Positions 1 to 17,033 of a DNA stretch of 64,000 nt are shown piece after piece (position 1 is the stretch's first letter; every line of letters starts with the position of its first letter). The notes under the pieces are model-generated. The model was not told the origin of the DNA and did no database searches. It saw only the letters and a list, made by a program, of their open reading frames with translations. Where the stretch lies: NCBI GenBank assembly GCA_029289095.1, contig JARFUG010000003.1, forward strand, positions 25,479 to 89,478. Direction: 5' to 3'. The DNA comes from Desulfuromonadales bacterium (GTDB taxonomy: Bacteria; Desulfobacterota; Desulfuromonadia; Desulfuromonadales; JACZKF01). The translations under genes were made by a program, and so were the position numbers.

Positions 1-509
1 ACATCGACAGCCCCAACGCAGCGCTCCACGGCTACACCGACCCGCGCATCGATCAAGGCATCGCGGGAATGGTCGACATCGATCCCGAAAATGTCGGCAA
101 GGCTTTTTTCGTCCCCAAGCTCTGCAACCAGTGTCTGACCCCCCCCTGCACCCAGGTCTGCCCGGTGGGCGCCACCTACAAGACGGACGACGGCGTCGTT
201 CTCGTCGACAAGAAGTGGTGCATCGGGTGCGGCTACTGTGTCATGGCCTGCCCTTATGCCGCGCGCTTTTTTCATCCCGTCACCCATGTGCCCGACAAGT
301 GCACCTTCTGCTATCATCGCATCCACCAGGGGCTCGAGACCGCCTGCGTCAACGCCTGCCCCTTCGAAGCCCGCAAGCTGTGCAACATTCGCGACGTCAA
401 CGATCCAGTGACCCGGATCATCATGACGGACCGCGTCGGTATTCTCAAGGATGAGTTCGGGACCAGACCCCAGGCCTTCTATATCGGTCTTGCCACGGAG
501 GTGCGTTGA
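1..509 (+). CDS. 4Fe-4S dicluster subunit of a membrane oxidoreductase (NrfC/PsrB/HybA-like); 5' end cut by window edge
   Basis: Frame 3 is open from nt 3. Ferredoxin-type Cys clusters are present (CNQCLTPPCTQVCP, CIGCGYCVMACP, CTFCYHR..CVNACP). The stop overlaps the start of the NrfD-like gene. Confidence 0.8.
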   Translation, partial: IDSPNAALHGYTDPRIDQGIAGMVDIDPENVGKAFFVPKLCNQCLTPPCTQVCPVGATYKTDDGVVLVDKKWCIGCGYCVMACPYAARFFHPVTHVPDKCTFCYHRIHQGLETACVNACPFEARKLCNIRDVNDPVTRIIMTDRVGILKDEFGTRPQAFYIGLATEVR

Positions 510-2103: not shown

Positions 2104-3303
2104 ATGAGTCTTCTCCAATCACCCTTCAACGCTAAAGGTAGGACAATGTCTCTTTCAACTCTCTGGGCCTGGTGCAAAAGACACCTTCTACTGGTAACGT
2201 TTCTCTCCATCGGCCTCATTTTTGTCTTCGCGGTCATCAACGTTCAGATTCTGCACATGACCTCAGAGCCTGAGTTCTGCGCCATGTGCCACCCCAACCA
2301 GGGGTACGGCCCGCTGGCCGAAGTCGATTCCTGGGCGCACTCGACCCATGCCGCCGCAGGCGTCTCTTGCCTGGACTGCCATGGCCGTCCCGGTCTGGCC
2401 GGCTACATGAGAGCCAAGATTGGCGGGCTCTACGATGTCTATATGCAGTTCACCCTTTCGGCTGAAGAGAAACTTGCCATTCTGTCCAATCCGTCGCCCG
2501 ACCTCGTTCCGGAAGACCACTGTCTCTACTGTCATTCCGATGAGCAGAACCTGGCGACCCGGCAGGCCACCCGCTTCATCGACCTCGTCAACATGCGCAT
2601 GCTCGACAGCGTGCAGAACCCCGAGTTCCGGGAGCGCAAAGGGATTCCTGATATTCTGGCCGGCCCCACCCGGGAGAACTCGCGCTTCGATCACACATTC
2701 CATATGGACACTTTCGAACTTTCGTGCAACGACTGTCACTTCGGTGTCGTGCACAACCCCCAGAGCAAAACCGACCTCATGAACATGTGCATCGCCTGTC
2801 ATGATGCATACGAAGGCTCGTCTGCTCCGCTTCTGAACGATTGCACCTCGTGCCATTCGGTCCAGAACTCGATGTACCTGGGCCAGGGCGCCCGCGGGGT
2901 TCCCGAGGAAGAGGGACTCAAGTCGATGTTCGGCATAAGCTGCGACATGTGTCACTCTTCGGTGTTCAAGGGCGTCTACCGTCCTTCGGCCGGCACCTGC
3001 ACCGATTGCCACGACTCGGGTTACAACGAAATTCTCGAGATGTGGCAGCAGGACACCCGAGAGCAGATCGCCAAACTTGACCGCCTTCGTCTTACCGTCG
3101 AAGACGCCCTGCGTGATGGTGATGCCCGCAACCGCGACAACACTGCTCGCTGGGAACTCTTCCAGAAGGCCGTCTACAATCTGAAACTGGTGAAGAAAGA
3201 TGGCGCGAAGGGAGCCCACAACGCCGACTACGCTTTGTCCATCCTTTCCTCGGTCGAGAAGGACTTCAACTTCATCCTCAACGACATCAGAATCAACTGG
3301 TAA
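2104..3303 (+). CDS. membrane-anchored octaheme c-type cytochrome (NapC/NirT-like N-terminus)
   Basis: Eight CXXCH motifs (CAMCH, CLDCH, CLYCH, CNDCH, CIACH, CTSCH, CDMCH, CTDCH) and one N-terminal TM helix. The alternative start at 2146 has the better SD. Confidence 0.8.
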   Translation: MSLLQSPFNAKGRTMSLSTLWAWCKRHLLLVTFLSIGLIFVFAVINVQILHMTSEPEFCAMCHPNQGYGPLAEVDSWAHSTHAAAGVSCLDCHGRPGLAGYMRAKIGGLYDVYMQFTLSAEEKLAILSNPSPDLVPEDHCLYCHSDEQNLATRQATRFIDLVNMRMLDSVQNPEFRERKGIPDILAGPTRENSRFDHTFHMDTFELSCNDCHFGVVHNPQSKTDLMNMCIACHDAYEGSSAPLLNDCTSCHSVQNSMYLGQGARGVPEEEGLKSMFGISCDMCHSSVFKGVYRPSAGTCTDCHDSGYNEILEMWQQDTREQIAKLDRLRLTVEDALRDGDARNRDNTARWELFQKAVYNLKLVKKDGAKGAHNADYALSILSSVEKDFNFILNDIRINW

Positions 3304-3327
3304 CCGGATCGCACAAAAGCCGAAAAA

Positions 3328-3356
3328 GGCGCCCTCTCGAGGGCGCCTTTTGTTTT
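3328..3356. terminator. bidirectional intrinsic terminator between the cytochrome gene and the convergent peptide array
   Basis: ggcgccc-tctcga-gggcgcc hairpin flanked by an A-run (3323-3327) and a T-run (ttttgtttt). Confidence 0.6.
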
Positions 3357-3402: not shown

Positions 3403-3546
3403 TCAGCCGACCCGGGAAGCCAGGAAGGCCAGCGCCGGGTAGGAGATCAGCACTGCCGTGCACACCGAAATGACCCCGGTCACGACCAGCACGCCTGCGA
3501 GATAACCTGCTTTCACTTTTTCACGAATCGCAACGACGTTTCCCAT
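3403..3546 (-). CDS. small hydrophobic peptide, 47 aa, copy 1 of 5: MGNVVAIREKVKAGYLAGVLVVTGVISVCTAVLISYPALAFLASRVG
   Basis: Hand translation of the minus strand. ATG at 3546 is preceded by GGAGGAGATC; stop is at 3405-3403. Paralogous to four other mini-ORFs in the window. Confidence 0.7.
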   Translation of the reverse strand: MGNVVAIREKVKAGYLAGVLVVTGVISVCTAVLISYPALAFLASRVG

Positions 3547-3618
3547 GATCTCCTCCGTTATCTAGTAAAGCCGGATCGCTCCGGATCGCCTTTTGACTTA
3601 GTCTCGTGTCCCGCGCTC

Positions 3619-3762
3619 TCAGCCGACCCGCGAAGCCAGGAAGGCCAGAGCCGGGTAGGAGATCAGCACCGCCGTGAACACCGAAATGACTCCGGTGACG
3701 ACCAGTACGCCTGCGAGATAACCTGCTTTCACCTTTTCACGAATGCTGACGACGTTTTCCAT
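3619..3762 (-). CDS. small hydrophobic peptide, 47 aa, copy 2: MENVVSIREKVKAGYLAGVLVVTGVISVFTAVLISYPALAFLASRVG
   Basis: Hand translation; SD GGAGGAGATC precedes the ATG. The gene lies exactly 216 bp from copy 1. Most nucleotide differences from copy 1 are synonymous. Confidence 0.7.
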   Translation of the reverse strand: MENVVSIREKVKAGYLAGVLVVTGVISVFTAVLISYPALAFLASRVG

Positions 3763-3834
3763 GATCTCCTCCGTTATCTGTAAAGCCGGATCGCTCCGGA
3801 TCGTCTTTTTGACTTTGCCTCGAACCCCGCGCCC

Positions 3835-3981
3835 TCAGCCGACCCTGGAAGCCAGGAACGCCAGCGCCGGGTAGGAGATCAGCACCGCCGTGAACACCGA
3901 AATGACTCCGGTGACGACCAGCAATGCAGCCAGATATCCTGATTTCGCCTTTTGACCGATTTTCCCGATAGTTGTTTCCAT
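3835..3981 (-). CDS. small hydrophobic peptide, 48 aa, copy 3: METTIGKIGQKAKSGYLAALLVVTGVISVFTAVLISYPALAFLASRVG
   Basis: This is the C-terminal part of track ORF 3835..4092. The internal ATG at 3981 is preceded by AAGGAGGAAATC. It is the first gene downstream of the sigma-54 promoter. Confidence 0.7.
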   Translation of the reverse strand: METTIGKIGQKAKSGYLAALLVVTGVISVFTAVLISYPALAFLASRVG

Positions 3982-4074
3982 GATTTCCTCCTTTGACTTG
4001 GCGCCTCCGCGGAAGGCGACTTTCTGATATTTTTTCGGTCGACTCTGGCGACCGTGCTTACTTGCCTTACTAAA

Positions 4075-4092
4075 TAGCAACCGCCGTGCCAA
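4075..4092 (-). promoter_or_regulatory. sigma-54 (-24/-12) promoter of the three-peptide array
   Basis: Minus strand reads TTGGCACGGCGGTTGCTA, matching the TGGCAC-N5-TTGCW consensus with correct spacing. It lies about 95 nt upstream of the copy-3 ATG. Confidence 0.8.
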
Positions 4093-4162
4093 TATGATTT
4101 TTCATGCCAAAACGAATACTTACGGCCTACTCACATCCTGGAGAGGCGATTCCAACTAAAAG

Positions 4163-4489
4163 TGTTCAATTCCCGGCATGAAGAAATTCAAGAAAATAAC
4201 CTGCCCTCTGCGACAATCCTTCTCACACCAGAGATGATGTCGTGCTGTCCGCCCCCGAATATGCACTTATCTGGCGTTGCAATGACCTTTTGACTGAGAT
4301 GTCGGCAGAGGCGATGACGTTGCAGGAGGGAATAAGCCCGTTTGGGATGTGTTCAGAATACGGCATGTGGAAAGTGGGACGCCAGATGGTGTTCACTCTA
4401 CTTGCTTGAAATACTGTCGTTTTCTCTTGTTCAAAATCCGACGTGGTGCGCTTGTTTCTTTTTATGGCAACTGTTGCGCACGTTGCAAT
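4163..4489 (-). promoter_or_regulatory. upstream activating region: three 16-mers of form TGTTCA-N-CCGRCR (TGT-N10-RCR) plus GTTGCA motifs and a GCAACTGTTGCGCACGTTGCAAT element
   Basis: 16-mers at 4163-4178, 4350-4365 and 4428-4443; CGTTGCA at 4275, 4318 and 4481. The same motifs occur at the same distances upstream of the second sigma-54 promoter (10073-10401). Confidence 0.55.
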
Positions 4490-4711
4490 TAATGCACTGG
4501 GACTCTCCTCCCAGCTCAGAGGAAAACCGGACGGTCGTTCCCCTGCCTCGCCCCGATGGCGCTCCTGTAAATTGCCATCCACTCTCCCTTGAATTCCTCA
4601 CTTCGCGGCAGCAATAAACCCCGGGAGAATGCATCCGTTCCGTCGGCGCGTTCTCCCGGGGTTTTGATAAAGCCACACCCGAATCCCCTCAAATGAGGGG
4701 ATTCGACTTTT

Positions 4712-4987
4712 TCAGGATCGGGCTGTAACGCCCGCCTTCCTGCGCGCTCTGACCATGTGAATTCCGTGGCGATTGCGGAAAATGCGCATCACCATAACGC
4801 CCATGATAGAGAGAAAGAAACCGATGCAAAGAACAACATATCCGATGCTCCTCCCATCTCCCAGCCCAGCGACGTCTTTTCCTGAGAGAAGGGCGATCAT
4901 CGCAATGGCGCCGAAGGTCACCACGCCCCCGAGCACGTAAATGCCGAGAGCCGAAATCCCCAAGAACATATCCTTATCTATTTTCAT
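4712..4987 (-). CDS. small membrane protein (two or three predicted TM helices), function unknown
   Basis: 91-aa ORF with SD GGAGA 7 nt upstream. It sits directly downstream of the CbcL-like gene on the same strand. The hairpin gaatcccctc-aaat-gaggggattc (4681-4704) follows it. Confidence 0.55.
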   Translation of the reverse strand: MKIDKDMFLGISALGIYVLGGVVTFGAIAMIALLSGKDVAGLGDGRSIGYVVLCIGFFLSIMGVMVMRIFRNRHGIHMVRARRKAGVTARS

Positions 4988-5045: not shown

Positions 5046-7028
5046 TCAGCCTTTGACGAAAGCGTAGAGCATCAAAAACGCCAGCGTCACGCCGGTGAAG
5101 AAAGCCAGGAAGCCGAAGCCCTTGAAGAAAAAGTCATAGAGAACCCCGCTCGTTTTCTTGGCTTCGAACTGCTCCAGGATCCCGAGCTCCTCGTAGCGCT
5201 TCCACTGGTCTCCGCGCTCATGGATGAACTCTTCCTTGGAAATCTGGCCGTTGAAGATGACAAAGTCCATCGGGAACTTCTCGGGCCGACCGTGGGTGTT
5301 GAAGAAGTGGACAGTAAAGATGAATCCGGTGGCGAGCAGCGCCTCGTCCGAATGGACGATGGTGGCGACGTTGAACATCCACCCGGGCAGGAAGAGGGCG
5401 AAGAATTCAGGGAACCAAAGGAGCAGACCGGAGCCGCCGATGGCGAACATCCCCCAGAAGACCGCCAGGAAGTCGAACTTCTCCCAGTAGGTCCAGCGCT
5501 CGAAGGTCGGTTTGGGCCCCTTGAAGAAGAACCACTTCACCATGCCGGTGACGTCCTTTACGTCGCGGGTGTTGGGGAGCAGCGAATCTGGACCGAAAAG
5601 ACGCTGCAGCCAGTGGGCCTTTGTCCCGTTGCGATTATAGACGTCCTTGCGGATGAACAGGAAGTCGAAGCTCATGATGAGAGCGCCGAGGAAGTAGTAG
5701 AAGGTCAGGATGGCGCAGCCGCGATGGATGAGACCGGCCAGGTGCACCCCGCCAAAGAAGTTCATCATGTTCACCGCCCAGGCCTGATCGGCGAACTTGA
5801 GCGGAAGCCCGGTCAGCGAAAGGCCGAGGAAGCTGATGATGACGACGAGGTGGAGATAGATGTGGCGTTTCTCAAACCGCAGATATTGCTTCTGAGGATC
5901 GGAGATGGCGTGGGCATGACTCCCTGCGGCTGCGCCTCCGTGCATCCTCTCTCCGGCCGAGACCGTCACGGCGACCGATGCCGACATGCCGTCGGCGACC
6001 GCCTCCGCTTCCTCGGTGTCCGAATCGTGCGCTCCCGAATGGGCATGGGAGCCCATGGCGGCTTGCTTCTCGCGGTTCTCGACGAAGCCGCGGAACATCC
6101 ACAGCAGGGTGTGGACCCAGAAAACGGCAAACGTCACCACCAGCAGAGAGGTCATGCTGATGTAAGTCCAATACAGGATCGGAAACTTGGCGCGGTCGTG
6201 ATGATCGCCGTGGGGGTGAAAGAGCACGAAGAGCGAATTCGCATTGGGATGGCACTGGGCGCAGGTCGCCACGAGATTGTCGGGATTGATGCTCGACATG
6301 GCGTGGTCACGCGGCAGCACGCTGTGGGCGGTGTGGCAGTCGGAGCATCCGGCCGTATCTTCCGGGAAACCGAGGCGGTAACCTTTGCCGTGATAATTGT
6401 CGAGGTACGTCTTGACGGTGAGCGCCGAAAGCCCCGCACGGCTCATCATCTCCTCATCGCCGTGGCAGGTCATGCAGGCGCTGGTGTGGAAAGCCATCTT
6501 CTGCCGATCGTCTCCCAGGGGATTGATCTGATGCAGACCGTGACAGTCGTGACAGGCCGCCGAATCGGGGTTGCCGTCGAGCACAGAGCGTCCGTGAATC
6601 GACTCGAGATATTCGGGGTGGTCGTGGCAGCCGAGGCACGAGTCGACAGCCACTTCCTTTTTACCCCCCCAGGACTTCAGGGCATGAATGTCGTAATGGC
6701 AGTCTTTGCAGCCTATGCCGCTGAGCATATGGATACTGGATCCATGCTCGGCGGTCTGCTCCTTGTGGCAGCGGGTGCAGTTGACCGGCTCGACCCTTAC
6801 GATTCCGTCCATGTGTCCGTCGAGATCGGTGACCTGCGTGTGGCAGCTTGTGCACGAGTTGTGCCCGTGGACGGACATGCCGAAAGCGGATGCGTCAATA
6901 TCTCCCTGGTGGCAGTCCATGCAGCTTTCCGCGGCGGGCGGCAGAGCTGCGGGAGACGGTGATGGTGCAGCCAGAATCCAGCAGAACAGCAAAATCGGGA
7001 TCAGTCGATAGAACCTCATTGGCTTCAT
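5046..7028 (-). CDS. CbcL-like inner-membrane cytochrome: periplasmic nine-heme c domain fused to a HydC/FdnI-type b-cytochrome membrane domain
   Basis: Signal peptide, then nine CXXCH motifs in aa 36-260, then a polytopic membrane domain in the C-terminal roughly 370 aa. This architecture matches the published description of Geobacter CbcL. The ATG at 7019 has better SD spacing. Confidence 0.75.
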   Translation of the reverse strand: MKPMRFYRLIPILLFCWILAAPSPSPAALPPAAESCMDCHQGDIDASAFGMSVHGHNSCTSCHTQVTDLDGHMDGIVRVEPVNCTRCHKEQTAEHGSSIHMLSGIGCKDCHYDIHALKSWGGKKEVAVDSCLGCHDHPEYLESIHGRSVLDGNPDSAACHDCHGLHQINPLGDDRQKMAFHTSACMTCHGDEEMMSRAGLSALTVKTYLDNYHGKGYRLGFPEDTAGCSDCHTAHSVLPRDHAMSSINPDNLVATCAQCHPNANSLFVLFHPHGDHHDRAKFPILYWTYISMTSLLVVTFAVFWVHTLLWMFRGFVENREKQAAMGSHAHSGAHDSDTEEAEAVADGMSASVAVTVSAGERMHGGAAAGSHAHAISDPQKQYLRFEKRHIYLHLVVIISFLGLSLTGLPLKFADQAWAVNMMNFFGGVHLAGLIHRGCAILTFYYFLGALIMSFDFLFIRKDVYNRNGTKAHWLQRLFGPDSLLPNTRDVKDVTGMVKWFFFKGPKPTFERWTYWEKFDFLAVFWGMFAIGGSGLLLWFPEFFALFLPGWMFNVATIVHSDEALLATGFIFTVHFFNTHGRPEKFPMDFVIFNGQISKEEFIHERGDQWKRYEELGILEQFEAKKTSGVLYDFFFKGFGFLAFFTGVTLAFLMLYAFVKG

Positions 7029-7060: not shown

Positions 7061-7726
7061 TCAGCTTCGCAACAAAATATCGAGTGCCTTCTTCTTTTCG
7101 GGGTTATTGAACCGGAACACCATCTCCTTCAAATAGAGGGGAAACTCATCTCGAAAACTCCCCCGGTAACGGCGCAGATGCCTGCGGGCGAACTCCCAGA
7201 ACTCCGCAGCGACGCGCAGTTCCCCTTCCGAACCGTGAGGGAGATGTTTCTGCAGAACTCGACTGAGAAAATTCTCCTTTGCTCCATATTGAGCGCCTAG
7301 CACCAGAGTCGAGCAGCACGCATGTGGAACGCCTGAGCCCCCCCTCTCGGGAAAGGCGACCCACACCGTTCGATCATTGACGCCGATCCCGCACAGGAGA
7401 TTCATCGGCTCCGACATCGGACAACCTTCACTTTGCACCTCCCTCAGATGCGTTGCGTTTTGGAGCCCATCATTTTCCAGGGCCATTTTGACTCTGAATT
7501 CCCTATAGATGCGCTGAACCGTCTTGCGGTTGATACCGGCGAGATCCGCTGCTCTGTATGCGGAACCGAGATCCCAGAATAGTTGGGCGACGGCTTCTCT
7601 GGTGGCTTCGGACAGCCTTCCCTGCCTCGGATGGGGTGTGAACTTCTGTCTGCACTTGCGACACTGGCGGCGGCCGTCCGCCAGCAGATAAGAATCTGCA
7701 TCACAGGCCGGGCATCGATCCATCAT
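7061..7726 (-). CDS. IS1595-family transposase-like protein (zinc ribbon + HTH + shortened DDE region), probably degenerate or domesticated
   Basis: N-terminal CPACDADSYLLADGRRQCRKCRQKF zinc ribbon and a C-terminal YLKEMVFRFNN motif typical of ISXO2/IS1595 transposases. At 221 aa it is short, and I found no flanking inverted repeats. Confidence 0.5.
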   Translation of the reverse strand: MMDRCPACDADSYLLADGRRQCRKCRQKFTPHPRQGRLSEATREAVAQLFWDLGSAYRAADLAGINRKTVQRIYREFRVKMALENDGLQNATHLREVQSEGCPMSEPMNLLCGIGVNDRTVWVAFPERGGSGVPHACCSTLVLGAQYGAKENFLSRVLQKHLPHGSEGELRVAAEFWEFARRHLRRYRGSFRDEFPLYLKEMVFRFNNPEKKKALDILLRS

Positions 7727-8011
7727 GTGGCGCCATCCTCCCGTTGGTCCTATTTAATGGCCTGATCGAAAATTCCACACAAAAAAAGGCCAAAGTTTTT
7801 TCCCTTTGTGCACTTTGACCGCCGGGGATTTCTCAGCCGCTAAATTATGCCGCTCCGTCTCGAGGGCAGAACCGGGGACAGGACATTAGATTACTTTTAT
7901 TTAACCCTGTCAACCTTTTCTCCTGCATAGAAAAACTCTCCTTTCCGTCTCAGTTCAGATGCCGGGCCAATCCCGGTCATCAGGGAAATATTCCGGAGGA
8001 TTGATCACTCC

Positions 8012-9406
8012 TCAGCACAGTTCGTGCCGCTTCATCCAACGCCACAAGGTTGTACGGTCTACACCGAGAATTCCCGCCACCTCAGTACGGTTTCCTCCGT
8101 GCCGATGGAGCAGTTCGTTGAGGTCCTGGGCAGAAACCGTTTTTCGCCTCGACCGTGAAAGGACGGGAGTTGGAACGCTCTTTGGCGACAACGTGGTGGG
8201 CAGATGCTCGATGTCAATTTCAGCGCCGCGACATAGAATGACCGTCTGCTCGATGATATTCAGCAGCTCCCGAACGTTTCCCGGGTATTCGTAATCGAGA
8301 AGGATCTGGAGCGCCTGAGCGGAGAGACCCCTGATATTTTTACCGTAGGCGCGGTTCAACCGATCGAGAAAGACCTCGATGAGCAGGGGGATGTCTTCCG
8401 GCCTCTGACGCAGGGGGGGGATCTGAAGAGCGACTACATTGATCCTGAAAAAAAGATCACGGCGGAAGGTTCCCGCATTCACCTTGGCCCTAAGGTCACA
8501 GTTGGTCGCAGCGACAAAGCGGACATTGGCCTTTTGCACCCTTTCTGCGCCGAGGGGCTGAAATTCCTGGTGCTCAATCACCCGCATCAGCTTGACTTGA
8601 AGGGATAATGGAAGCTCACCGACTTCGTCGAGGAAGAGGGTTCCCCCTTCGGCGAGTTCGATGCGTCCCTGGCGATCGGTCCGATTACCGTAACCTCCCT
8701 TGCGCGAGCCGAAAAATTCGACTTCGAGCAGATGCTCCGGGAGCTCTCCGCAATTCACGACGACCATCGGCCCGGCACTTCGCGAACTGAGCTCGTGAAT
8801 CGCCTTGACGATGAGCTCCTTGCCGGTGCCGCTCTCGCCGGAGACCAGAACCGTGGCATCGCTGCGAGCAACATCTGGCAGAGCGTCGAAGAGCCGATGC
8901 ATGGCGGGATTGCGGCTGACGAGATTTCGGAAGGTGTACTTCTCGGCGACCCGCACGGAGGCGGAGCACAGTTCGGAGCGATCACGGAACGCCTCGACGC
9001 CGCCGATGGGATGTCCTTGCAGGTCGCGCAGGACGGAAGCGCTCACCGAAACCGGTACTTTGCGGTTCTCCTTGTTGCGGATTTCGAACTCGCGGTTAAC
9101 GACCCCGATGTTTGTTTTTCTGGCTTCTCGCACTGGGCAGCTCTCTGAGCAGATATTGGAGCGGAAAATTTCATAACACGGCTTTCCGACCACCTCCGCC
9201 CTGGTAAATCCGGTGATCTCTTCGGCAGCGCGGTTGAACGACGTGATGCGCATGCGGTCATCGACGGTGAAAACGCCGTCTGCTACGCAGTTGAGAATGG
9301 CGCCGGTGAGAACGCTGGAGTTGCCGAACAGGTGGACAGCCGGGGCGCTCCTGCGTGAGATCTCCAAATTAGCTGAACTCTGGTACCTGCCTCGCTCGCT
9401 GCTCAT
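8012..9406 (-). CDS. PAS-domain sigma-54-type enhancer-binding protein (AAA+ domain + C-terminal Fis-type HTH) with a non-canonical GAFTGA loop
   Basis: Walker A GESGTGKE, GGTLFLDEVGEL, and the GNVRELLN motif are present. The C-terminal HTH reads RTEVAGILGVDRTTLWRWMKR. The PAS domain carries CYEIFRSNICSESC. The L1 loop reads KGGYGNR instead of KGAFTGA. Confidence 0.85.
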   Translation of the reverse strand: MSSERGRYQSSANLEISRRSAPAVHLFGNSSVLTGAILNCVADGVFTVDDRMRITSFNRAAEEITGFTRAEVVGKPCYEIFRSNICSESCPVREARKTNIGVVNREFEIRNKENRKVPVSVSASVLRDLQGHPIGGVEAFRDRSELCSASVRVAEKYTFRNLVSRNPAMHRLFDALPDVARSDATVLVSGESGTGKELIVKAIHELSSRSAGPMVVVNCGELPEHLLEVEFFGSRKGGYGNRTDRQGRIELAEGGTLFLDEVGELPLSLQVKLMRVIEHQEFQPLGAERVQKANVRFVAATNCDLRAKVNAGTFRRDLFFRINVVALQIPPLRQRPEDIPLLIEVFLDRLNRAYGKNIRGLSAQALQILLDYEYPGNVRELLNIIEQTVILCRGAEIDIEHLPTTLSPKSVPTPVLSRSRRKTVSAQDLNELLHRHGGNRTEVAGILGVDRTTLWRWMKRHELC

Positions 9407-9518
9407 CGGACACCTCTCGTCGGGGACGGACGCTAATGCTCCCCTAGGACACCCTCAACCCGGCACTCTGCACTTTCGCATCGGGGGATTTTTCGACTCC
9501 GATCTTCCTGGGACTGGC

Positions 9519-9665
9519 TCAGCCGACCTTGGCTGCGAAGAAAGCCAGGGCGGGGTAGGAGATCAGCACCGCCGTAACCCCGGACATGACGCCGGCCAGA
9601 ACCAGCACTGCGACCAGGAAACCTGCCTTCATTTTTTCGCGGAAGAAATTGCCGATGGTTTCCAT
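9519..9665 (-). CDS. small hydrophobic peptide, 48 aa, copy 4: METIGNFFREKMKAGFLVAVLVLAGVMSGVTAVLISYPALAFFAAKVG
   Basis: Hand translation; SD GGAGGAGAAT precedes the ATG at 9665. It lies 113 nt upstream of the bEBP gene on the same strand. Confidence 0.7.
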   Translation of the reverse strand: METIGNFFREKMKAGFLVAVLVLAGVMSGVTAVLISYPALAFFAAKVG

Positions 9666-9743
9666 ATTCTCCTCCACCTTCTCTTGCAGTACAGCACGAC
9701 CAATCCACTGATCCAGCCCGCCAGCAACCTTTCTCGTCAGCCC

Positions 9744-9890
9744 TCAGCCGACCCTGGAAGCCAGAAAAGCCAGCGCGGGGTAGGAAATCAGAACAGCCGT
9801 AACCACGGACATGACGCCGGTGACGACCAGCAATGCGACGAGATAGCCCGATTTCGCTTTTTGTCCAATTTTCTCGATGGTTGTTTCCAT
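9744..9890 (-). CDS. small hydrophobic peptide, 48 aa, copy 5: METTIEKIGQKAKSGYLVALLVVTGVMSVVTAVLISYPALAFLASRVG
   Basis: Hand translation; SD AAGGAGGAAAGTC precedes the ATG at 9890. It is the first gene after the second sigma-54 promoter. Confidence 0.7.
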   Translation of the reverse strand: METTIEKIGQKAKSGYLVALLVVTGVMSVVTAVLISYPALAFLASRVG

Positions 9891-9985
9891 GACTTTCCTC
9901 CTTTGACTTGGCGCCTCCGCGCGGGAGGCGTCTTCTTATAATCTTTCGGCCCTCTCAAGAGACCGTGCTTGCTTGCCTAACTTAA

Positions 9986-10003
9986 TAGCAACCGGCGTGC
10001 CAA
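9986..10003 (-). promoter_or_regulatory. sigma-54 (-24/-12) promoter of the two-peptide array (and possibly the downstream bEBP gene)
   Basis: Minus strand reads TTGGCACGCCGGTTGCTA. The downstream leader (aggcaag.aagcacggtc) is also shared with the 4075 promoter. Confidence 0.8.
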
Positions 10004-10072
10004 ATAAATAGTCACGCGCAAACAGCCACTTAGGTGGCTTGTCCGTCCCATGGAGTCGATTCCGGCGAAAAG

Positions 10073-10401
10073 TGTTCAATTCCCGACGGAAAAAAAAGAA
10101 ATCGAACGGCCGGACCTGCGGCAACCTTCCGCCCCGCAGCAGAGGTAAGGACGAACTGTCCGGCCGCGAACGCCCGTTGGTCGTGGCATGCATTGTTTTT
10201 CCCTGCGTGGGTGAAGAGGCGATTGACGTTGCACGGAGTGGATGCGTCCGCCTGAAATGTGTTCAGAATCCGGCAGGGCAAAATGGAGACGATCAACCAG
10301 AAAGATTACTATCTGATTGATTATTGGTTCTTTTCCCTTGTTCAATATCCGACGCATCGCGTTCTGTTTCCCTTCAGGGCAACTGTTGCGAGCGTTGCAA
10401 T
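10073..10401 (-). promoter_or_regulatory. upstream activating region paralogous to 4163-4489
   Basis: 16-mers at 10073-10088, 10260-10275 and 10339-10354; CGTTGCA at 10227 and 10393; GGCAACTGTTGCGAGCGTTGCAAT at 10378-10401. Distances to the -12 element match locus A within 1-2 bp. Confidence 0.55.
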
Positions 10402-10658
10402 CGAGTTACCAGACCTCAGGCTGTTGCACCTCGTCAGGGCATTCTGCAACAGACCAGATATCTGTCGCTGCCGATTCTCTTTGAAATTGCAGCAGTGAAT
10501 TCCACCTACGTCTTCTGTATCCTGATTCCGACTATTCGAGGCGTACACAAAAAGTGAAAAAATTTTTCCTTTTTTCCGGCTACTCCCTTTGGTATCATTA
10601 ATTTCTGTAACTCACTTAAAGCTGGGGCAATTTCACCCCCGTACGCAGGAGAGTTTCA

Positions 10659-11117
10659 ATGGCGGTTTCCAGCAGCGACCCCATCTTTCCCATCAGCGTG
10701 GCTGCAAAACTCCTCGGAGTTCATCCCCGGACGATCCGCATCTACGAAGACGAAGGCCTGATCAAACCTTCACGTCGAGGCCAGAAAAGATACTTTTCCC
10801 AGGACGACATCCAGTGGATTCAATGCATCAGATATCTCATCCATGAAGAGGGAGTCAGCATTCCCGGCATCAAGAAGCTCCTCAAGCTCAGCCCATGCTG
10901 GGAGATCAAGGTCTGTCCGCCAGAGATTCGCGAAAATTGTTCCGCTTATGTCGACAGAAGCGGGTCGTCACAAAAACCGTGCTGGGAAGTCGCGAATCGG
11001 GCCTGCGCCAAAGACTTCGATCAGTGCGCAACTTGCGATGTTTTCGTGCAGGCGATGAAGGAGAGTCAGTCGTTGCAGGAACGGAGAGAAAAAGAGCCGA
11101 AGATTGGCGCAGACTGA
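10659..11117 (+). CDS. MerR-family transcriptional regulator with C-terminal Cys-rich two-CW-type domain
   Basis: N-terminal MerR HTH (ISVAAKLLGVHPRTIRIYEDEGLIKPSRR). The C-terminus carries PCWEIKVC..C..PCWEVANRAC..CATC, i.e. 8 Cys and two CW dyads. Confidence 0.8.
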   Translation: MAVSSSDPIFPISVAAKLLGVHPRTIRIYEDEGLIKPSRRGQKRYFSQDDIQWIQCIRYLIHEEGVSIPGIKKLLKLSPCWEIKVCPPEIRENCSAYVDRSGSSQKPCWEVANRACAKDFDQCATCDVFVQAMKESQSLQERREKEPKIGAD

Positions 11118-11338: not shown

Positions 11339-12802
11339 GTGAAGGAAGTCGCCAATATTATCAATGCATTCTTCAGAGGAATCACTCACAGCAAGGTCTC
11401 TCTGATCGGGGCGATGGTCGTCACAGTCGTCTTCCCCTTTCTCGTCGGCGCGATCATCTATGACATCTATTTTCACATCGAGAACACCTATTTCGCCGGC
11501 TTCATCTACATGCTTCTCGGCCCTGTGTTTCTCGGAGGACTTCTTCTTGTCTTTCTCGGCCTGTTCTTTTTCAAAGGCAAGGAGGAGGTCAGGCTTTTCA
11601 CCCTCGAATATCTCCAGGACTATTTCACCGATCCGACGAAGTTCTCCAGGCTCCGTCGGATCTTGTTCTTCACAGTCTTTCTCACTTGCGTCAACCTATT
11701 CATTTTCGGCGTCCTCGCCTACAGGGGATACCATTACATGGAGTCGACCGGATTTTGCGGCACTTTCTGCCATACGGTGATGAATCCCGAATACACCGCA
11801 TATCAGAATTCTCCGCACTCCAGGGTGACCTGTGTCGAATGCCACATCGGAGGAGGCGCCGAATGGTTCGTCAAGTCGAAGATCTCCGGAGCCCGCCAGC
11901 TTCTCGCCGTGGCCTTCGACACGCACCCGCGCCCCATAGAGACTCCCGTCCATGGTCTGCGTCCCGCCCGGGACACGTGTCAGCAGTGCCACCGTCCGGA
12001 GAAATTCCATGGAAACCGGCTCGTCATCAAGGAGAGATTTCTTCCGGATGAGCACAACACCAAAACCTTTACCGCCCTGCTGATGAAGATCGGTTCGGCA
12101 GGCGACCACACCACGGGATCTCATGGGATTCACTGGCATGTGGCGCCGGAAAACGAAATCACCTACCAGCACGCAGACTACGGCCGCCAAATTATCCCCA
12201 TCGTGACGATGACCGGAGCCAGCGGCGGAGAGCGTATCTTTCTGAGTTCTGACGCCGACGAAGTCATGGCCGAAGCTGCCGCACGCGGAGGCGGCGTTCG
12301 GGTGATGGACTGCATCGACTGCCACAACCGCCCCTCCCACATTTTCCTGTCGCCGGACCAGGCGATCGACCGCAAGATGCTGGAGGGGGAGATCCCCAAA
12401 GAACTTCCCTTCATCAAGCGCCAAGCCCTGGCGGCGGCAACCCAGCTCTACACCTCGAGTCAGCAGGCCCGCACCGCCATCGCCACGCAATTGCACGACT
12501 GGTACCAGACCAACTACCCGGACCTGGTCAAAAAAGGCTTGGTTGAAAAGGCGATCCGCGGGGTTCAGGCCGCCTATGCTGAAAACGTCTTCCCCGAGAT
12601 GAACATTCAGTGGAACACCTACGTCGACCACATCGCCCACACCCCTGATTTCGATCCGATGATCGGCTGCATCCGCTGCCACAACGATGAGCATGAAACC
12701 GTCACGGGGGAAGTCATTTCCATGGACTGCGATTTGTGCCACACGGTATTGGTCGAAAATGTCAAGGAGATGAACATTCCTGAAATGCTTCGTGGCAGGT
12801 AG
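11339..12802 (+). CDS. membrane-anchored multiheme c-type cytochrome, NapC/NirT-related (ImcH-like architecture)
   Basis: GTG start 8 nt after GGAGG. Three N-terminal TM helices. Five CXXCH motifs (CVECH, CQQCH, CIDCH, CIRCH, CDLCH) plus one CX3CH (CGTFCH). Confidence 0.8.
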   Translation: MKEVANIINAFFRGITHSKVSLIGAMVVTVVFPFLVGAIIYDIYFHIENTYFAGFIYMLLGPVFLGGLLLVFLGLFFFKGKEEVRLFTLEYLQDYFTDPTKFSRLRRILFFTVFLTCVNLFIFGVLAYRGYHYMESTGFCGTFCHTVMNPEYTAYQNSPHSRVTCVECHIGGGAEWFVKSKISGARQLLAVAFDTHPRPIETPVHGLRPARDTCQQCHRPEKFHGNRLVIKERFLPDEHNTKTFTALLMKIGSAGDHTTGSHGIHWHVAPENEITYQHADYGRQIIPIVTMTGASGGERIFLSSDADEVMAEAAARGGGVRVMDCIDCHNRPSHIFLSPDQAIDRKMLEGEIPKELPFIKRQALAAATQLYTSSQQARTAIATQLHDWYQTNYPDLVKKGLVEKAIRGVQAAYAENVFPEMNIQWNTYVDHIAHTPDFDPMIGCIRCHNDEHETVTGEVISMDCDLCHTVLVENVKEMNIPEMLRGR

Positions 12803-13320: not shown

Positions 13321-14037
13321 TCAGGACAAGCGGACACGCGCCAGCACGGGGAGATGGTCCGAGGCGACCATCGTTGCCCTGTTCTTTACGACGCCGATCT
13401 CCAGGAGGTCGTCCATGGGCTGAACCAGAATGCGATCAAGAGAGAGCAAGGGGAAAAAAGCGGGGAAGGTTCTTGGCGCCGGCGTGCGGCCGAAGTGCCT
13501 GTGAAGCCATCGGGCAGGGCGCCCGAGAAGAAACCACTCGTTCAGGTCCCCCAGAACGATGACCGATGATTCGGCCGATGAGAGCTCGACGATCTTCAAA
13601 AGCTTCTGCACCTGGTAGCGCCTCTCGGCGGGCTGGAGCCCGAGGTGCGTGACGATGATCCGGGTCGCCCCCGACGGCGTTTCGAGCTCGACGTCCAGGG
13701 CGCCGCGAGATTCGCGCTGAGGGTATGAAAGATCATGGCGCCGCACGTCTAAAATCCGACAGCGGGTCAGGAGCGCATTTCCGTAATAGCCGTCGTGACG
13801 CTCGATGGTCGGACCCCCGATAGCCCTCAGGCCGGTGGCGCCGCAGAGAAAATCGAGCTGCATGCTCCTTTGGTCTTCGCCGAAAGGCGCATTGACTTCC
13901 TGCAGCCCGATGATATCGACTCTCAGGTCCCTGATGATTCCGGCAATACGCTCCGGATCGAGCTGTCCGTCCATCCCGACGCATTGGTGAATGTTGTAGG
14001 AAGCGACCCGACAACACCCTTTCTCACCTTCCATCAT
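13321..14037 (-). CDS. endonuclease/exonuclease/phosphatase (EEP) family protein
   Basis: VASYNIHQCVG..DIIGLQEV N-terminal motif and C-terminal SDHLPV motif. The start overlaps the stop of the PLD gene by 4 nt. Confidence 0.8.
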   Translation of the reverse strand: MMEGEKGCCRVASYNIHQCVGMDGQLDPERIAGIIRDLRVDIIGLQEVNAPFGEDQRSMQLDFLCGATGLRAIGGPTIERHDGYYGNALLTRCRILDVRRHDLSYPQRESRGALDVELETPSGATRIIVTHLGLQPAERRYQVQKLLKIVELSSAESSVIVLGDLNEWFLLGRPARWLHRHFGRTPAPRTFPAFFPLLSLDRILVQPMDDLLEIGVVKNRATMVASDHLPVLARVRLS

Positions 14038-16382
14038 CCTCTCTCCATCTCATCTCCTTCCCCTCTTTTTTTGCCCGAGAGCCACCGCCGCAGATACAAG
14101 ATCCCTCCCCCGATGGCGAGCAGAACGATCCCGAGAAACACAATATTGGCGGGCTCCGGCTCGGTGAGGGCTATCCTTAGCCGGTTCTCGAAAATCGTGA
14201 TCGCCAGTATGCCAGGGCCCATTCCGAGCATCGTCCCAAGGAAATAATCACGAAAGTGGATATGACTCGCCCCGGCAACCAGGTTTACGATAGAAAAGGG
14301 GGCGATGGGGAGGAAGCGCACCAGAAGAACAGCGATCACCCCCCGCTGCGCCAACTGCTGGCTAAGCCTGTTGATCTTCGCTCCCGCCAGCCGACGCACC
14401 GTATCTCGGCCCAGAAAGTGGCCCCCTGCATAGGTGAGCGCCGCACTGGCAAGGACTCCCGCAAGAGCATAGAAAAACGCCTGCAGAGGGGCAAACGTCA
14501 GAGCGGTGGCGAAGATCAGGACCGTGACCGGAAAGACGACGATTCCGCCCAGAACGAAGAGAGCGACGACCAGAGCGGGCGCCCAGGGGCTTCCCCGCAC
14601 TGCGACGCCCCAGGCGCGCAACACGTCGAGACTTACCCATTCTCCCAACGGGGTCCATCGCCAGGCTGCCGACAGGGCGAGCATAGCCAGAGCGAATCCG
14701 GCGAGAAGCGCCCATCGTCTTTTCTTCCCTGTGTCCTTTTCGCCGACATCCCTGGAGACGATCTCTTCGACAAATTCCTCGAAAGGCATGGGGCGTTCAG
14801 GATCGAGGATCTGTGCCTCGGGCACGATCTGGTCGAACCATTTGTCTTTTCGTGGGTCGAGCGGCGCCAGAGAACGGCCGGGGCCCCTGAGGGCCTCGAT
14901 CGCCTCAATCAAGGATTCCCCCTCATTAAAAGCGCGGGCGAAATCACCCGGCGGCACTCCCAGGTGTTCCGCCAGAAGGCGGGAGCGGAACTCGCCGATG
15001 GAGAGACGCGTTTCGTTGTTGTCCGCCTCGACCGCCAGATCGCATTCAGTATCAAGACCCATCGATCGGTTGCTGAGATTGGCCGATCCCACGCGCAGGA
15101 GGCGATCATCGACGATCATGATCTTGCTGTGAAGATTGATCGACTTTTCCCCGGGAGCGTCCATTCGAGGGTAGTAGACCCTCAGTTTTCCGAACCTGTC
15201 CGCTTCGAGAAGCTGCCGCAGCATGCGGGCTCGCAGCACCCCCATGGTCGACTCTTCTAGCCATCCCGAGCACTCTTTGGGAAAAACAAGGACGATTTCC
15301 GGGCCGTCCTCCTGCTGGAGGCGCGCCGTGAGCGCGTCGCCTACAACGGCAGAGGTGAAAAACTGGTTCTCGATGTAGATGAAAAATCGGGCGGCCGCTA
15401 TGCTGTCCAGGTAAAGGGTCTCGACTTCGCGGATCTCCGCATGTCCGTTATAGGCCGGCATTGTCCGGACGACGGCCACTCGGACATCGGTGAGATCGGG
15501 ACGAACCCCCGGAGGCCACGGATCATCGATGGGATCGGGAGGCGGATCGAGCATCTCTCCGGTTCGGCGCTTCCAACGGGCGCGGGCCAGGTCGCCTAGA
15601 ACGGATGCGGCGGCGCCGTCGACCATCATCTGAACGTCATGAAAAGGGCCGTAGGCAAGGCCGTGATCGCAGCGACGCGGGTCTTCAGGCAGATGCTCGG
15701 AGGTGTCCCAGCGGCACCCTGCGAGATCGAATCCGCCGACGAAGGCGATGCTGTCGTCGATGACGACGGCCTTCTGGTGATGCGCCCCTCCAACGGGGTG
15801 ACGATCGTCGAGTCGGAAACGGACGCGCCGATGAGTGTTCCAGGCGAATTTGAAAAAGGGGAGGGTTTCGCGCTCCAGGGCATAAAGCATGACGAAATCC
15901 CAGTCCAGGACCTGGATTTTCAGCAAGGGGCGCCTCGACGCCAGTCGGCTGAGGAACTCACGCAGGGGCGGGAAGTGGTAATCTCTTTTTCCATTTCGAA
16001 GCAGTCGGATGCGGCTGTCGATGTCCCATCCGAGGATGAAGACCGAATACTTCGCCCGCCCGAGGGCCGAGGCCAGAGCAGAGAAATACGCTTCACCGTC
16101 GACGAGGAGAGCCGCCCTCCTGCAGGGGGCGATCCGCCAGCAGTTGCGTCCGGGCTGGAGTATCTTCTTGTCCTCCATGTTTTCCCTGTTATTCGGCGGT
16201 GCACAGGCAGTGGAGATGCCGAAGAGAGAATTTTTTTCAGTATAGCAAGTCAGACGCAAGGCGGGTCCCCCGGCCATGACCTTGCCGCATGTGGACGGGG
16301 ATGCCCCTCCCGGAACCTCCCCGGAGTCTGGATAAGACGTTGATATGTCATGGCGGATCCGCTCAGGCAGGGTAATCTTCAC
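14034..16382 (-). CDS. phospholipase D/cardiolipin-synthase-like protein fused to a C-terminal VTT (DedA/TVP38) membrane domain
   Basis: Two HKD motifs (HHQKAVVIDD, NLHSKIMIVDD..GSANLSNRS). The C-terminal roughly 220 aa are polytopic with DedA-like sequence (RFLPIAPFSIVNLVAGAS). The real start is probably the ATG at 16178 (MEDKKIL). Confidence 0.8.
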   Translation of the reverse strand: MKITLPERIRHDISTSYPDSGEVPGGASPSTCGKVMAGGPALRLTCYTEKNSLFGISTACAPPNNRENMEDKKILQPGRNCWRIAPCRRAALLVDGEAYFSALASALGRAKYSVFILGWDIDSRIRLLRNGKRDYHFPPLREFLSRLASRRPLLKIQVLDWDFVMLYALERETLPFFKFAWNTHRRVRFRLDDRHPVGGAHHQKAVVIDDSIAFVGGFDLAGCRWDTSEHLPEDPRRCDHGLAYGPFHDVQMMVDGAAASVLGDLARARWKRRTGEMLDPPPDPIDDPWPPGVRPDLTDVRVAVVRTMPAYNGHAEIREVETLYLDSIAAARFFIYIENQFFTSAVVGDALTARLQQEDGPEIVLVFPKECSGWLEESTMGVLRARMLRQLLEADRFGKLRVYYPRMDAPGEKSINLHSKIMIVDDRLLRVGSANLSNRSMGLDTECDLAVEADNNETRLSIGEFRSRLLAEHLGVPPGDFARAFNEGESLIEAIEALRGPGRSLAPLDPRKDKWFDQIVPEAQILDPERPMPFEEFVEEIVSRDVGEKDTGKKRRWALLAGFALAMLALSAAWRWTPLGEWVSLDVLRAWGVAVRGSPWAPALVVALFVLGGIVVFPVTVLIFATALTFAPLQAFFYALAGVLASAALTYAGGHFLGRDTVRRLAGAKINRLSQQLAQRGVIAVLLVRFLPIAPFSIVNLVAGASHIHFRDYFLGTMLGMGPGILAITIFENRLRIALTEPEPANIVFLGIVLLAIGGGILYLRRWLSGKKRGEGDEMERG

Positions 16383-16421
16383 TATAGGGTAGGATGATCA
16401 GGTCCTGACAGGGAGGCGCCC

Positions 16422-17015
16422 ATGTTCGATCTTCCGATCTTCAACTCCCCCTTTTTTGCGCTCGTCGTCATCCCTCTTCTGATCTTCGTCTCGCGCATTG
16501 TCGATGTGACCTTCGGGACCCTTCGCATCATCTTCGTCTCGCGAGGGCTGCCGTACTTCGCAGCCTTTGTCGGCTTTTTCGAGGTGCTGATCTGGATCGT
16601 CGCCATCGGCCAGGTCATGCAGAATCTCACCAACTGGGTCACCTACGTCGCCTACGCCTTCGGATTCTCCGCCGGCAATTTCGTAGGCGTCGTCATTGAA
16701 CGCAAGCTCGCCATGGGCAATCTCATTGTACGAATCATCACCCGCAGGGAAGCCGACGAACTGGTAAAATTCTTGTGGAAATCGGGGTACGGAGTGACGA
16801 GCGTCGATGCCCGAGGAGAGACCGGACCGGTCAAGGTCATCTTCACCATCGTGAAGCGCAAGAAACTCCCCGAAGTGATCGAAATCATCAAGCGCTACAA
16901 TCCCAACGCCTTCTACTCCATAGAAGACGTTCGCTTCGTGAACGAGACGCTTCAGAGCGCCCCCATGGGCAAGAGAGCTCTTTTCTCCATGCGCTCACTG
17001 CGCAAACGCAAGTAA
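16422..17015 (+). CDS. UPF0316/DUF2179-family membrane protein (YebE-like)
   Basis: Three N-terminal TM helices (RIVDVTFGTLRIIFVSRG), then a soluble DUF2179-like domain (GYGVTSVDARGETGPVKVIFTIV). Confidence 0.7.
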   Translation: MFDLPIFNSPFFALVVIPLLIFVSRIVDVTFGTLRIIFVSRGLPYFAAFVGFFEVLIWIVAIGQVMQNLTNWVTYVAYAFGFSAGNFVGVVIERKLAMGNLIVRIITRREADELVKFLWKSGYGVTSVDARGETGPVKVIFTIVKRKKLPEVIEIIKRYNPNAFYSIEDVRFVNETLQSAPMGKRALFSMRSLRKRK

Positions 17016-17033
17016 CCCCGGAGCAAGGACATA

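Follow-up and report, generated by a model that had tools for sequence, protein, structure and literature searches.

One of the described systems that the locus treated here resembles is the cbcBA operon of Geobacter sulfurreducens (GSU0597-GSU0593), which comprises a sigma-54 promoter, two small hypothetical genes, the gene of an enhancer-binding protein (EBP) and a bc-type cytochrome (bioRxiv 10.1101/2021.04.15.440034). The locus itself lies in a stretch of 64,000 nucleotides from a Desulfuromonadales bacterium (contig JARFUG010000003.1, positions 25,479 to 89,478; hereafter the window, in whose numbering coordinates are given unless a locus is named), where two genes for 48-residue peptides (array 2) stand behind a sigma-54 promoter and point at the gene of a regulator similar to OrpR of Desulfovibrio vulgaris. 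Expression of the cbcBA operon is tied to low redox potential. The gene order of the window and the absence of a terminator would fit a single unit of this kind, but a conserved promoter-like block is present before the downstream gene p220 and the CbcL-like gene. The cytochrome of the window is however CbcL-like (a 9-heme and b-type fusion) rather than CbcBA, its divergent gene encodes a MerR-type protein rather than the receiver-domain protein BccR, and the embedded regulator is of a PAS/Fe-S type without the GAFTGA motif.

The regulator recalls two further groups of proteins. OrpR of D. vulgaris is a [4Fe-4S]-based EBP active at low redox potential, whose residues C52, C61 and C65, together with an acidic residue at 54, are required for redox sensing (PMC8359166). 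The window regulator has the same PAS-AAA+-helix-turn-helix (HTH) order, the spacing C-x8-C-x3-C and an acidic residue at C+2, and the likeness extends to the orp operon in a sister clade, where the corresponding operon carries two Nitro_FeMo-Co (ORP-like) genes. Unlike the orp locus, the window holds no Nitro_FeMo-Co gene, the neighbours being small peptides and cytochromes; the OrpR palindrome GGGCGYRTTTTGCGCCC is absent from the window at up to 3 mismatches, and the GAFTGA loop of the regulator has been lost. This motif is required for contact with sigma-54, and EBPs without it (TyrR, HupR, NtrX, VpsR and the NtrC proteins of Caulobacter and R. capsulatus) act at sigma-70 promoters, which they activate or repress (PMC6158489; 10.1101/2023.06.06.543975). 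With these atypical EBPs the window regulator shares a full EBP fold and a deleted or degenerate L1 loop. It differs from them in its location beside perfect sigma-54 promoters, one of which probably drives its own transcription, in retaining both Walker motifs (A and B) and in having lost the loop recently.

The peptides can be likened to accessory subunits of respiratory enzymes. Cytochrome bd and the cbb3 oxidase carry the small single-helix subunits CydX and CcoQ, respectively, which are of similar size, have one transmembrane (TM) helix and are encoded among the genes of respiratory complexes. The window family has no sequence similarity to these subunits, however, is multi-copy and alpha/beta paired, and forms a separate transcription unit except in the sister clade. 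Taken as a whole, the locus is best read, with moderate confidence, as a duplicated, sigma-54-driven form of a peptide pair, in which the adjacent regulator would not be the activator and the peptides would be partners of oxidoreductases.

Array 2 and its promoter

Array 2 consists of two real paralogous protein-coding genes, an A-type gene (copy 5) followed by a D-type gene (copy 4). A check of open reading frames (ORFs) agrees with the initial annotation of two 48-residue copies with stops 225 nucleotides apart; in the mechanical ORF list copy 4 begins at a GTG at 9677, upstream of the ATG adopted here. Strong Shine-Dalgarno sequences precede both ATGs (AAAGGAGGAAAGTCATG for copy 5 and GGTGGAGGAGAATATG for copy 4), and the C-terminus TAVLISYPALAF(L/F)A(S/A)(R/K)VG is common to both copies and to the three copies of a second array in the window (array 1). 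The closest relative of copy 5 is copy 3 of array 1, with 91% identity in amino acids and 85% in nucleotides. As 17 of the differences between them are synonymous and 4 non-synonymous, giving a ratio of non-synonymous to synonymous rates (dN/dS) of 0.07, the DNA has diverged and the protein has been held, in agreement with the earlier observation of a shared C-terminal motif on diverged DNA. The pairing of copies 5 and 3, each promoter-proximal in its array, was likewise borne out, both being A-type. Between copy 5 and its orthologue in locus L001 of the related metagenome-assembled genome (MAG) GCA_050485365.1 the ratio is 0.09, and all 55 pairwise comparisons within the family fall below 0.6 (0.07-0.56). 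Both copies are under strong purifying selection, with dN/dS values of 0.07-0.4.

A local hidden Markov model (HMM) of the family matched exactly five ORFs in the window, copy 5 with an E-value of 6e-23 and copy 4 with one of 2e-20. The N-terminus and AVLVLAG segment of copy 4 match the last gene, D-type, of a four-gene array in L001. An identical copy of the locus is present in the NCBI MAG GCA_030604755.1, where both array 2 genes have been called, the exact copy 5 protein occurs in public collections, and orthologous arrays have been found in other assemblies. Selection, the HMM matches and the orthologous arrays together rule out that the ORFs are chance or antisense artefacts. A plus-strand ORF of 242 residues (9213-9941), which overlaps array 2 in full and also the beginning of the regulator gene, was rejected as an antisense shadow of GC-rich coding sequence.

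The peptides are probably single-pass inner-membrane proteins. An AlphaFold2 model of copy 5 is one continuous helix over residues 2-47 (predicted local distance difference test score, pLDDT, 83), and hydropathy gives a short, weakly basic N-terminus followed by about 30 hydrophobic residues. In the sequence of copy 5, small residues occur on one face of the helix at i, i+4 and i+8 (S28/A32/S36).

Upstream of copy 5 lies a sigma-54 element with the canonical -24 GG and -12 GC at fixed spacing (TGGCAC-N5-TTGCW). Perfect TGGCAC-N5-TTGC sites number only two in the 64 kb of the window, at 9988-10002 and 4077-4091, each before a peptide array. Loci L001-L007 have a perfect site about 105-120 nucleotides upstream of the first peptide gene, and the element is invariant in a four-way alignment of the two window arrays, L001 and L004 (JGI contigs). 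Phylogenetic footprinting revealed three CGGRWWYTGAACA boxes further upstream, about 78, 265 and 345 nucleotides before the -24 element, the proximal one, a candidate enhancer (upstream activating sequence, UAS), being conserved in both window arrays, L001 and L004. The core CGGRWWYTGAACA has 5 exact matches in the window, all of them upstream of the two arrays, where 0.03 are expected, a count that must be read with the knowledge that the boxes were defined from the same sequences in which they were counted. A more distal TTGCAAC-N4-GCAACAGTTGCC element is found in the window only at 10378-10400 and 4466-4488 and is conserved in L001; it resembles the TGTTGCA repeats of the sister clade, whose motif TGTTGC-N5-GCAACA is absent from the window. 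Between the promoter and copy 5, a GC hairpin in the 5' untranslated region (5'-UTR) recurs at the equivalent spot in array 1 (4002-4022), L001 (about 9968-9986) and L004 (about 1546-1566), with differing sequences; compensatory change affects 3 of 7 pairs, a weak signal with n = 4. This hairpin may be a stabiliser of the mRNA or a translational element. Rfam at gathering thresholds gave no match in positions 1-22000 of the window.

The wider family and the origin of the arrays

The peptides belong to a family of 44-48 residues in Desulfuromonadales, which is undescribed and has no family model. A homologue search with a single sequence returned only 4 clusters, a figure that understates the size of the family; an HMM search of 1.84 billion representatives gave 26 matches, and a profile search of 5.8 billion proteins at least 466 clusters at E <= 0.01. 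All of the family matches listed are named hypothetical and none carries a Pfam domain, and the few with an organism name come from Desulfuromonadales or 'Deltaproteobacteria' MAGs. With a narrow pattern, one MAG only was matched among the GTDB species representatives. Pfam and NCBIfam scans of the window peptides gave nothing above noise, as did Pfam scans of the canonical alpha and beta peptides and of a 53-residue type found in the sister clade. A full-text literature search for the peptide motifs returned nothing relevant, and the portions of the ImcH and CbcBA papers that answer to the relevant terms hold no passage on such peptides.

Eighty metagenomic loci were retrieved and screened locally with the family HMM. 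Exactly two high-scoring copies are carried by 63 of them, giving 53 distinct sequence pairs, and a tandem pair on one strand is the near-universal form of the family in the loci screened. In almost all pairs the members show position-specific orthology, the first gene being alpha (consensus MKTQSRFMDxVKSSYLVLVIAxLGVFAFISAVLIAWPALAYIGSKLFN) and the second beta (consensus MKxAANIxNxVKASYTxAxMGVLGVFAFVSAVLIAWPALAYLGAKMFN). The conserved end of the family reads (A/S)(W/Y)PALA(F/Y)L(A/G)S(K/R). The canonical pairs have a perfect TTGACA -35 box about 75-85 nucleotides upstream, which points to a near-consensus sigma-70-type promoter, and lack the sigma-54 element. Among family arrays, the two of the window and those of L001-L007 are the only ones preceded by the sigma-54 element. 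Because the canonical pairs carry TTGACA in place of this element, sigma-54 control and the expansion into A, B and D subtypes appear to be derived traits of a small clade, comprising this lineage and its two closest relatives.

The second array of the window can be understood against this background. L001 has one four-gene array whose types are by sequence A-B-B-D, while the window has A-D (array 2) and A-B-B (array 1), each preceded by a separate copy of some 520 bp of upstream DNA (about 3982-4493, paralogous to 9891-10405; 81% identity over about 440 bp aligned). The simplest history would be a segmental duplication of A-B-B-D followed by reciprocal gene loss; the duplication would be old, given that the two A copies of the window have reached a synonymous divergence (dS) of about 0.6. 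Array 1 ends in a 12-bp GC hairpin with a U-run.

The neighbourhood of the peptides is that of inner-membrane cytochromes. In about 21 of the 34 loci of at least 5 kb, the peptide genes lie beside a divergent ImcH-like gene and/or a convergent operon of NrfD, Fe-S and cytochrome genes, and the same island has an 8-heme NapC/NirT-type cytochrome, a CbcL-like gene and the two-TM gene p91 nearby. The 13-14 loci outside a cytochrome context have rubrerythrin-like, CxxCxxCC and Cache-cytochrome genes or unknowns beside the peptides, with no second theme among them.

The regulator and the rival explanations

The regulator gene that follows array 2 encodes a protein 53% identical to one named OrpR by NCBI, with Pfam matches to PAS_9, Sigma54_activat (PF00158, E = 2.6e-59), AAA_lid_14 and HTH_8. 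The motifs GESGTGKE and LFLDEVGE (Walker A and B), FRRDLFFRINV (arginine finger) and PGNVREL (sensor II) are intact, and the Fis-type HTH (PF02954) has a recognition helix, LGVDRTTLWRWMK, common to the sister clade. By analogy with OrpR, the regulator probably senses low redox potential via an Fe-S cluster on the Cys triad of its PAS domain. The L1 loop tells a different story from the rest of the domain: in alignment with ZraR (1ojl) and NifA it reads KGGY-GNR, and the two closest orthologues have GPYSGG and GPDGDG. The motif GA[FY]T[GD][AS] is retained in 115 of the 120 best homologues, the sister clade included; the loss is confined to three close orthologues, each with a different remnant. 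The differing remnants suggest that the constraint on sigma-54 contact has been lost. The initial annotation had taken this protein for a sigma-54-type activator, a view at odds with a GAFTGA reduced to GGY-GN with the Thr deleted. The regulator is probably an atypical EBP and, having lost the sigma-54-contact loop, probably not the activator of the adjacent promoters, from which it would follow that an intact EBP encoded elsewhere should fire them. A second EBP gene was not found within the 64-kb window. A GAFTGA-intact activator outside the window would then act on the sigma-54 promoters, perhaps via the three CGGRWWYTGAACA boxes, and the regulator itself would repress, or oppose the activator, at upstream sites used by both, or alternatively act on the conserved sigma-70-like promoter before p220 and the CbcL-like gene.

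The sister clade (L009-L011) shows another arrangement of these elements. Its regulators are 64-68% identical to that of the window and have an intact loop, GAYTG(A/S). The regulator gene is followed by TGTTGCA repeats, a TGGCAC-N5-TTGGAA element and an operon of two Nitro_FeMo-Co (ORP-like) genes, 47-residue peptides, the 53-residue type, p220, CbcL and p91. The promoter stands at 10128-10145 in L010 and 9642-9659 in L011, with GG in place of the canonical GC at -12, conserved in these two loci, and at about 2475-2495 in L009 with a shifted spacing. The upstream TGTTGCA/TGCAACA repeats are probably enhancer sites of the sister-clade regulator. The second peptide type consists of helices of 52-53 residues with the motif AWS(F/L)xC(L/A)GGA, weakly matched by the peptide HMM (E 1e-4 to 1e-6). 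The small genes lie at 3390-4070 in L009, 10995-11520 in L010 and 10076-10820 and 12026-12376 in L011, up to six per locus. On these comparisons an ancestral link of an OrpR-like activator, the peptides and CbcL appears well supported. L010 also holds, at 15690-17045 on the minus strand and a few kb downstream of the CbcL-like gene, a second OrpR-like EBP with a GAYTDA loop, the Cys triad and a similar recognition helix, which shows that this locus can accommodate paralogous regulators of overlapping DNA specificity.

Co-transcription of array 2 and the regulator had been proposed as the basis of a positive feedback loop, and its parts fared differently. Array 2 does point at the regulator with no intrinsic terminator between: the 112-nucleotide spacer folds worse than shuffled sequence (z = +1.27), and no terminator-like site was found on its minus strand (9407-9518). 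A sigma-70 scan of the array 2/regulator region gave no promoter within the rules of the tool and thus no backing to TTGAGG-17-TAGCGT, a candidate read by eye in the spacer. The ancestral upstream region of the regulator has been replaced in the window. With no terminator, a spacer of just 112 nucleotides and that region replaced, the transcript of array 2 most probably extends into the regulator gene, and it may go further, across p220, the CbcL-like gene and p91. Read-through would tie the level of the regulator to expression of the array. The relatives L001 and L004 have a convergent cytochrome gene between array and regulator, so the layout that allows co-transcription appears unique to this genome and is not conserved. 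Positive feedback itself finds little favour, as a regulator with a degenerate GAFTGA would be unlikely to activate its own sigma-54 promoter; the sign of any feedback is more likely to be negative or modulatory.

That the adjacent PAS regulator is nevertheless the cognate sigma-54 activator of both arrays, enhancing its own synthesis by co-transcription, is unlikely, though several features speak for it. The regulator has a full Sigma54_activat domain with intact Walker A/B and HTH, no terminator separates it from array 2, and arrays with a sigma-54 promoter occur only in loci with this regulator. Its intact sister-clade orthologue is found directly upstream of a sigma-54-like operon with homologous peptides, and an EBP gene lies inside the cbcBA sigma-54 operon of G. 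sulfurreducens. What tells against the proposal is a GAFTGA that is degenerate and different in each close orthologue while conserved in the great majority of the best homologues, together with the behaviour of the GAFTGA-less EBPs studied, which act at sigma-70 promoters or as repressors, and the lack of conservation of the co-transcribed arrangement. The co-occurrence of arrays and regulator, proposed as a check in the initial annotation, is seen in this lineage, its two closest relatives and the sister clade, where peptides and regulator family share a locus, but about 50 metagenomic loci have the pair with a sigma-70-type promoter and without the regulator. In the wider family, peptide genes without this regulator, which the initial annotation had named as evidence against its reading, thus do exist.

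As to what the peptides do, conservation along the whole helix and the retention of both alpha and beta types point to a specific hetero-oligomeric membrane assembly. The peptides, one helix face of which carries small residues (S/A-xxx-A-xxx-S/A), would form hetero-oligomeric helix bundles that associate with or modulate the menaquinol:cytochrome c oxidoreductases of the surrounding genes. Helix-wide conservation, pairing, the small-residue face, strong promoters and ribosome-binding sites and a fixed position in the island favour such a role, and the peptides are most likely oligomeric inner-membrane partners or modulators of quinol-oxidising cytochromes. A bolder version, in which the helices are unrecognised subunits or tuners of ImcH, Cbc and CbcL, with paralogous isoforms swapped in this lineage at low redox potential through the sigma-54 promoter and the loop-less, OrpR-derived regulator, itself transcribed from that promoter, serving as a redox-dependent anti-activator in negative feedback, is judged rather improbable. 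Very unlikely is a role as membrane-damaging agents, akin to type I toxins, holins or leaderless bacteriocins, kept silent by the sigma-54 promoter. Some type I toxins and multi-peptide bacteriocins are typically encoded in tandem arrays, and the peptides are small and hydrophobic, come in several copies and are controlled by an activator-dependent promoter, a kind that has essentially no basal activity; against this, the canonical pairs stand behind near-consensus sigma-70 promoters, are extremely conserved across lineages and keep a fixed place among respiratory genes, and neither an antisense-RNA signal nor a gene for immunity or export was found. Least probable of all is that they are precursors of exported signals of the Phr type, which are near them in size, with the hydrophobic stretch serving as a Sec signal and a cut by signal peptidase after the ALA of YP-ALA releasing 7-8 C-terminal residues such as FLASRVG or YLGAKMFN. 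A basic N-region, hydrophobic core, Pro, ALA and short conserved tail would suit such a precursor, as would tandem multi-copy genes with varying tails. The hydrophobic stretch, however, at about 22-30 very strongly conserved residues, is unlike the h-region of a signal peptide, the AlphaFold2 helix is unbroken across the putative cleavage site, and the neighbourhoods examined show no conserved gene for a receptor, an exporter or a processing enzyme.

Several points weigh against the preferred reading of a sigma-54-driven peptide pair that partners oxidoreductases under an activator encoded elsewhere. Apart from the circularity in the count of upstream boxes, the link of the peptides to respiratory complexes is drawn from gene neighbourhood, and 13 of the 34 longer loci have other, heterogeneous neighbours. 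Why a stoichiometric subunit should need 2-5 paralogues is not obvious. Rho-dependent termination may occur in the 112-nucleotide spacer. The degenerate L1 loop might keep some activity, the GPYSGG orthologue retaining the aromatic residue and having Ser for Thr; a T-to-S change is tolerated in PspF. Lastly, in three lineages this regulator and the sigma-54 promoters are strictly found together, a pattern that also fits a regulator which is still the activator.

Neighbouring genes and significance

The two arrays bracket the regulator, a gene first described as IS1595-like and the CbcL-like operon, an arrangement that agrees in all its descriptive parts with the initial annotation (Table 1). 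The published descriptions of CbcL and ImcH agree with the features of the corresponding window genes (PMC6295460). L001 has the array, the convergent NapC/NirT-type gene, the regulator, p220, the CbcL-like gene and p91, in this order, and in L004 a MerR-type gene is followed by two peptide genes, the convergent cytochrome gene and the regulator. The order of the island blocks varies among the window, L001, L010 and the canonical loci, so that the cytochrome island appears to be rearrangement-prone. A gene of the same MerR type neighbours the peptide genes in L004 and L010, and its product could feed a further redox or metal signal into the intergenic region of 650 bp. A hairpin with an 11-bp stem at 4680-4705, after p91, may end the regulator/p220/CbcL unit.

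The IS1595-like gene, p220, turns out to be a conserved, non-mobile member of the locus and a partner of the regulator and the CbcL-like gene. Its Pfam and NCBIfam matches are weak, PF12762 being matched just over positions 115-153 of 153 (E = 0.046). Orthologues are found between the regulator and CbcL-like genes in L001, L009, L010 and L011, and p220 is absent from CbcL loci without the regulator. An IS1595 insertion sequence was rejected on account of the incomplete DDE domain and the position fixed in four other loci; p220 looks like a domesticated transposase fragment, possibly a locus-specific DNA-binding factor. The block GGAAAAGGTTGACAGnGTnAnATAAnAGTnATCTAATG that precedes it is nearly invariant between the window and L001 (about 13720-13750) within diverging flanks and is a likely candidate promoter/operator for p220, the CbcL-like gene and p91, a function left uncertain by a TCTAAT -10 in which the A customary at position 2 is missing. 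Another conserved block, GTGGAATTTTCGAnCAGGCC, is found some 45 nucleotides before the ATG of p220.

Table 1. Coordinates of the features of the locus in the window.
Feature	Position	Strand	Remarks
Copy 5, A-type	9744-9890	minus	first gene of array 2 (9519-9890); 48 residues, METTIEKIGQKAKSGYLVALLVVTGVMSVVTAVLISYPALAFLASRVG
Copy 4, D-type	9519-9665	minus	second gene of array 2; 48 residues from ATG, METIGNFFREKMKAGFLVAVLVLAGVMSGVTAVLISYPALAFFAAKVG
5'-UTR GC hairpin	9910-9932	minus	directly upstream of copy 5 Shine-Dalgarno
Sigma-54 -24/-12 promoter of array 2 (predicted)	9988-10002	minus	TGGCACGCCGGTTGC, also written TGGCACGCCGGTTGCT
Proximal box, candidate enhancer	10066-10087	minus	GTCGGGAATTGAACACTTTTCG; about 78 nucleotides upstream of -24
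Middle box	10259-10274	minus	GCCGGATTCTGAACAC; conserved by phylogenetic footprinting
Distal box	10337-10353	minus	GTCGGATATTGAACAAG; conserved by phylogenetic footprinting
Distal element	10378-10401	minus	ATTGCAAC-N4-GCAACAGTTGCC, palindrome GCAACAGTTGC inside
Spacer, copy 4 to regulator ATG (9406)	9407-9518	minus	112 nucleotides; weak sigma-70 candidate TTGAGG-17-TAGCGT
OrpR-like regulator	8012-9406	minus	464 residues; PAS + AAA+ + Fis-type HTH; degenerate GAFTGA
PAS Cys triad C77-x8-C86-x3-C90 and E79	9137-9178	minus	OrpR [4Fe-4S]-ligand spacing
GAFTGA (L1) loop remnant	8681-8698	minus	GGYGNR, Thr deleted
Sigma-70-like block	7885-7913	minus	TTGACA-17-TCTAAT, GGAAAAGGTTGACAGnGTnAnATAAnAGTnATCTAATG; between regulator gene and p220
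p220	7061-7726	minus	221 residues; N-terminal Zn-ribbon + HTH + IS1595-type C-terminal remnant
CbcL-like inner-membrane cytochrome	5046-7028	minus	9 CXXCH + b-type membrane domain
p91	4712-4987	minus	91 residues, two TM, no family assignment; conserved, immediately follows CbcL-like genes in many loci
Sigma-54 promoter of array 1 (predicted)	4077-4091	minus	in duplicated upstream region
Array 1	3403-3981	minus	three genes, A-B-B
Copy 3, A-type	3835-3981	minus	array 1
Copy 2, B-type	3619-3762	minus	array 1
Copy 1, B-type	3403-3546	minus	array 1
Bidirectional intrinsic terminator (predicted)	3324-3351		between array 1 and the convergent 8-heme gene
8-heme NapC/NirT-type cytochrome gene	2104-3303		convergent to array 1
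NrfD/Fe-S genes	69-1846		
MerR/HspR-type regulator	10659-11117	plus	Cys-rich C-terminal 'two-CW'-like domain; divergent from array 2
ImcH-like gene	11339-12802		3 TM segments, 5 CXXCH + 1 CX4CH

Nothing in the locus is categorically new; it is best regarded as a lineage-specific, sigma-54-driven variant of an undescribed and widespread small-membrane-protein pair of the Desulfuromonadales. It may show an activator on its way to an atypical role that does not depend on sigma-54, and it serves as a reminder that a bacterial EBP beside a sigma-54 promoter is not automatically its cognate partner. How Geobacter-type organisms choose among the ImcH, CbcL and Cbc quinol oxidases according to acceptor potential is an open question. 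The published analyses consulted focus on the cytochromes and do not mention small ORFs. The alpha/beta pair is a candidate for a missing component of the inner-membrane machinery of extracellular electron transfer, and if the isoform-swapping reading were true, the locus would constitute a negative-feedback, isoform-switching circuit for this process.

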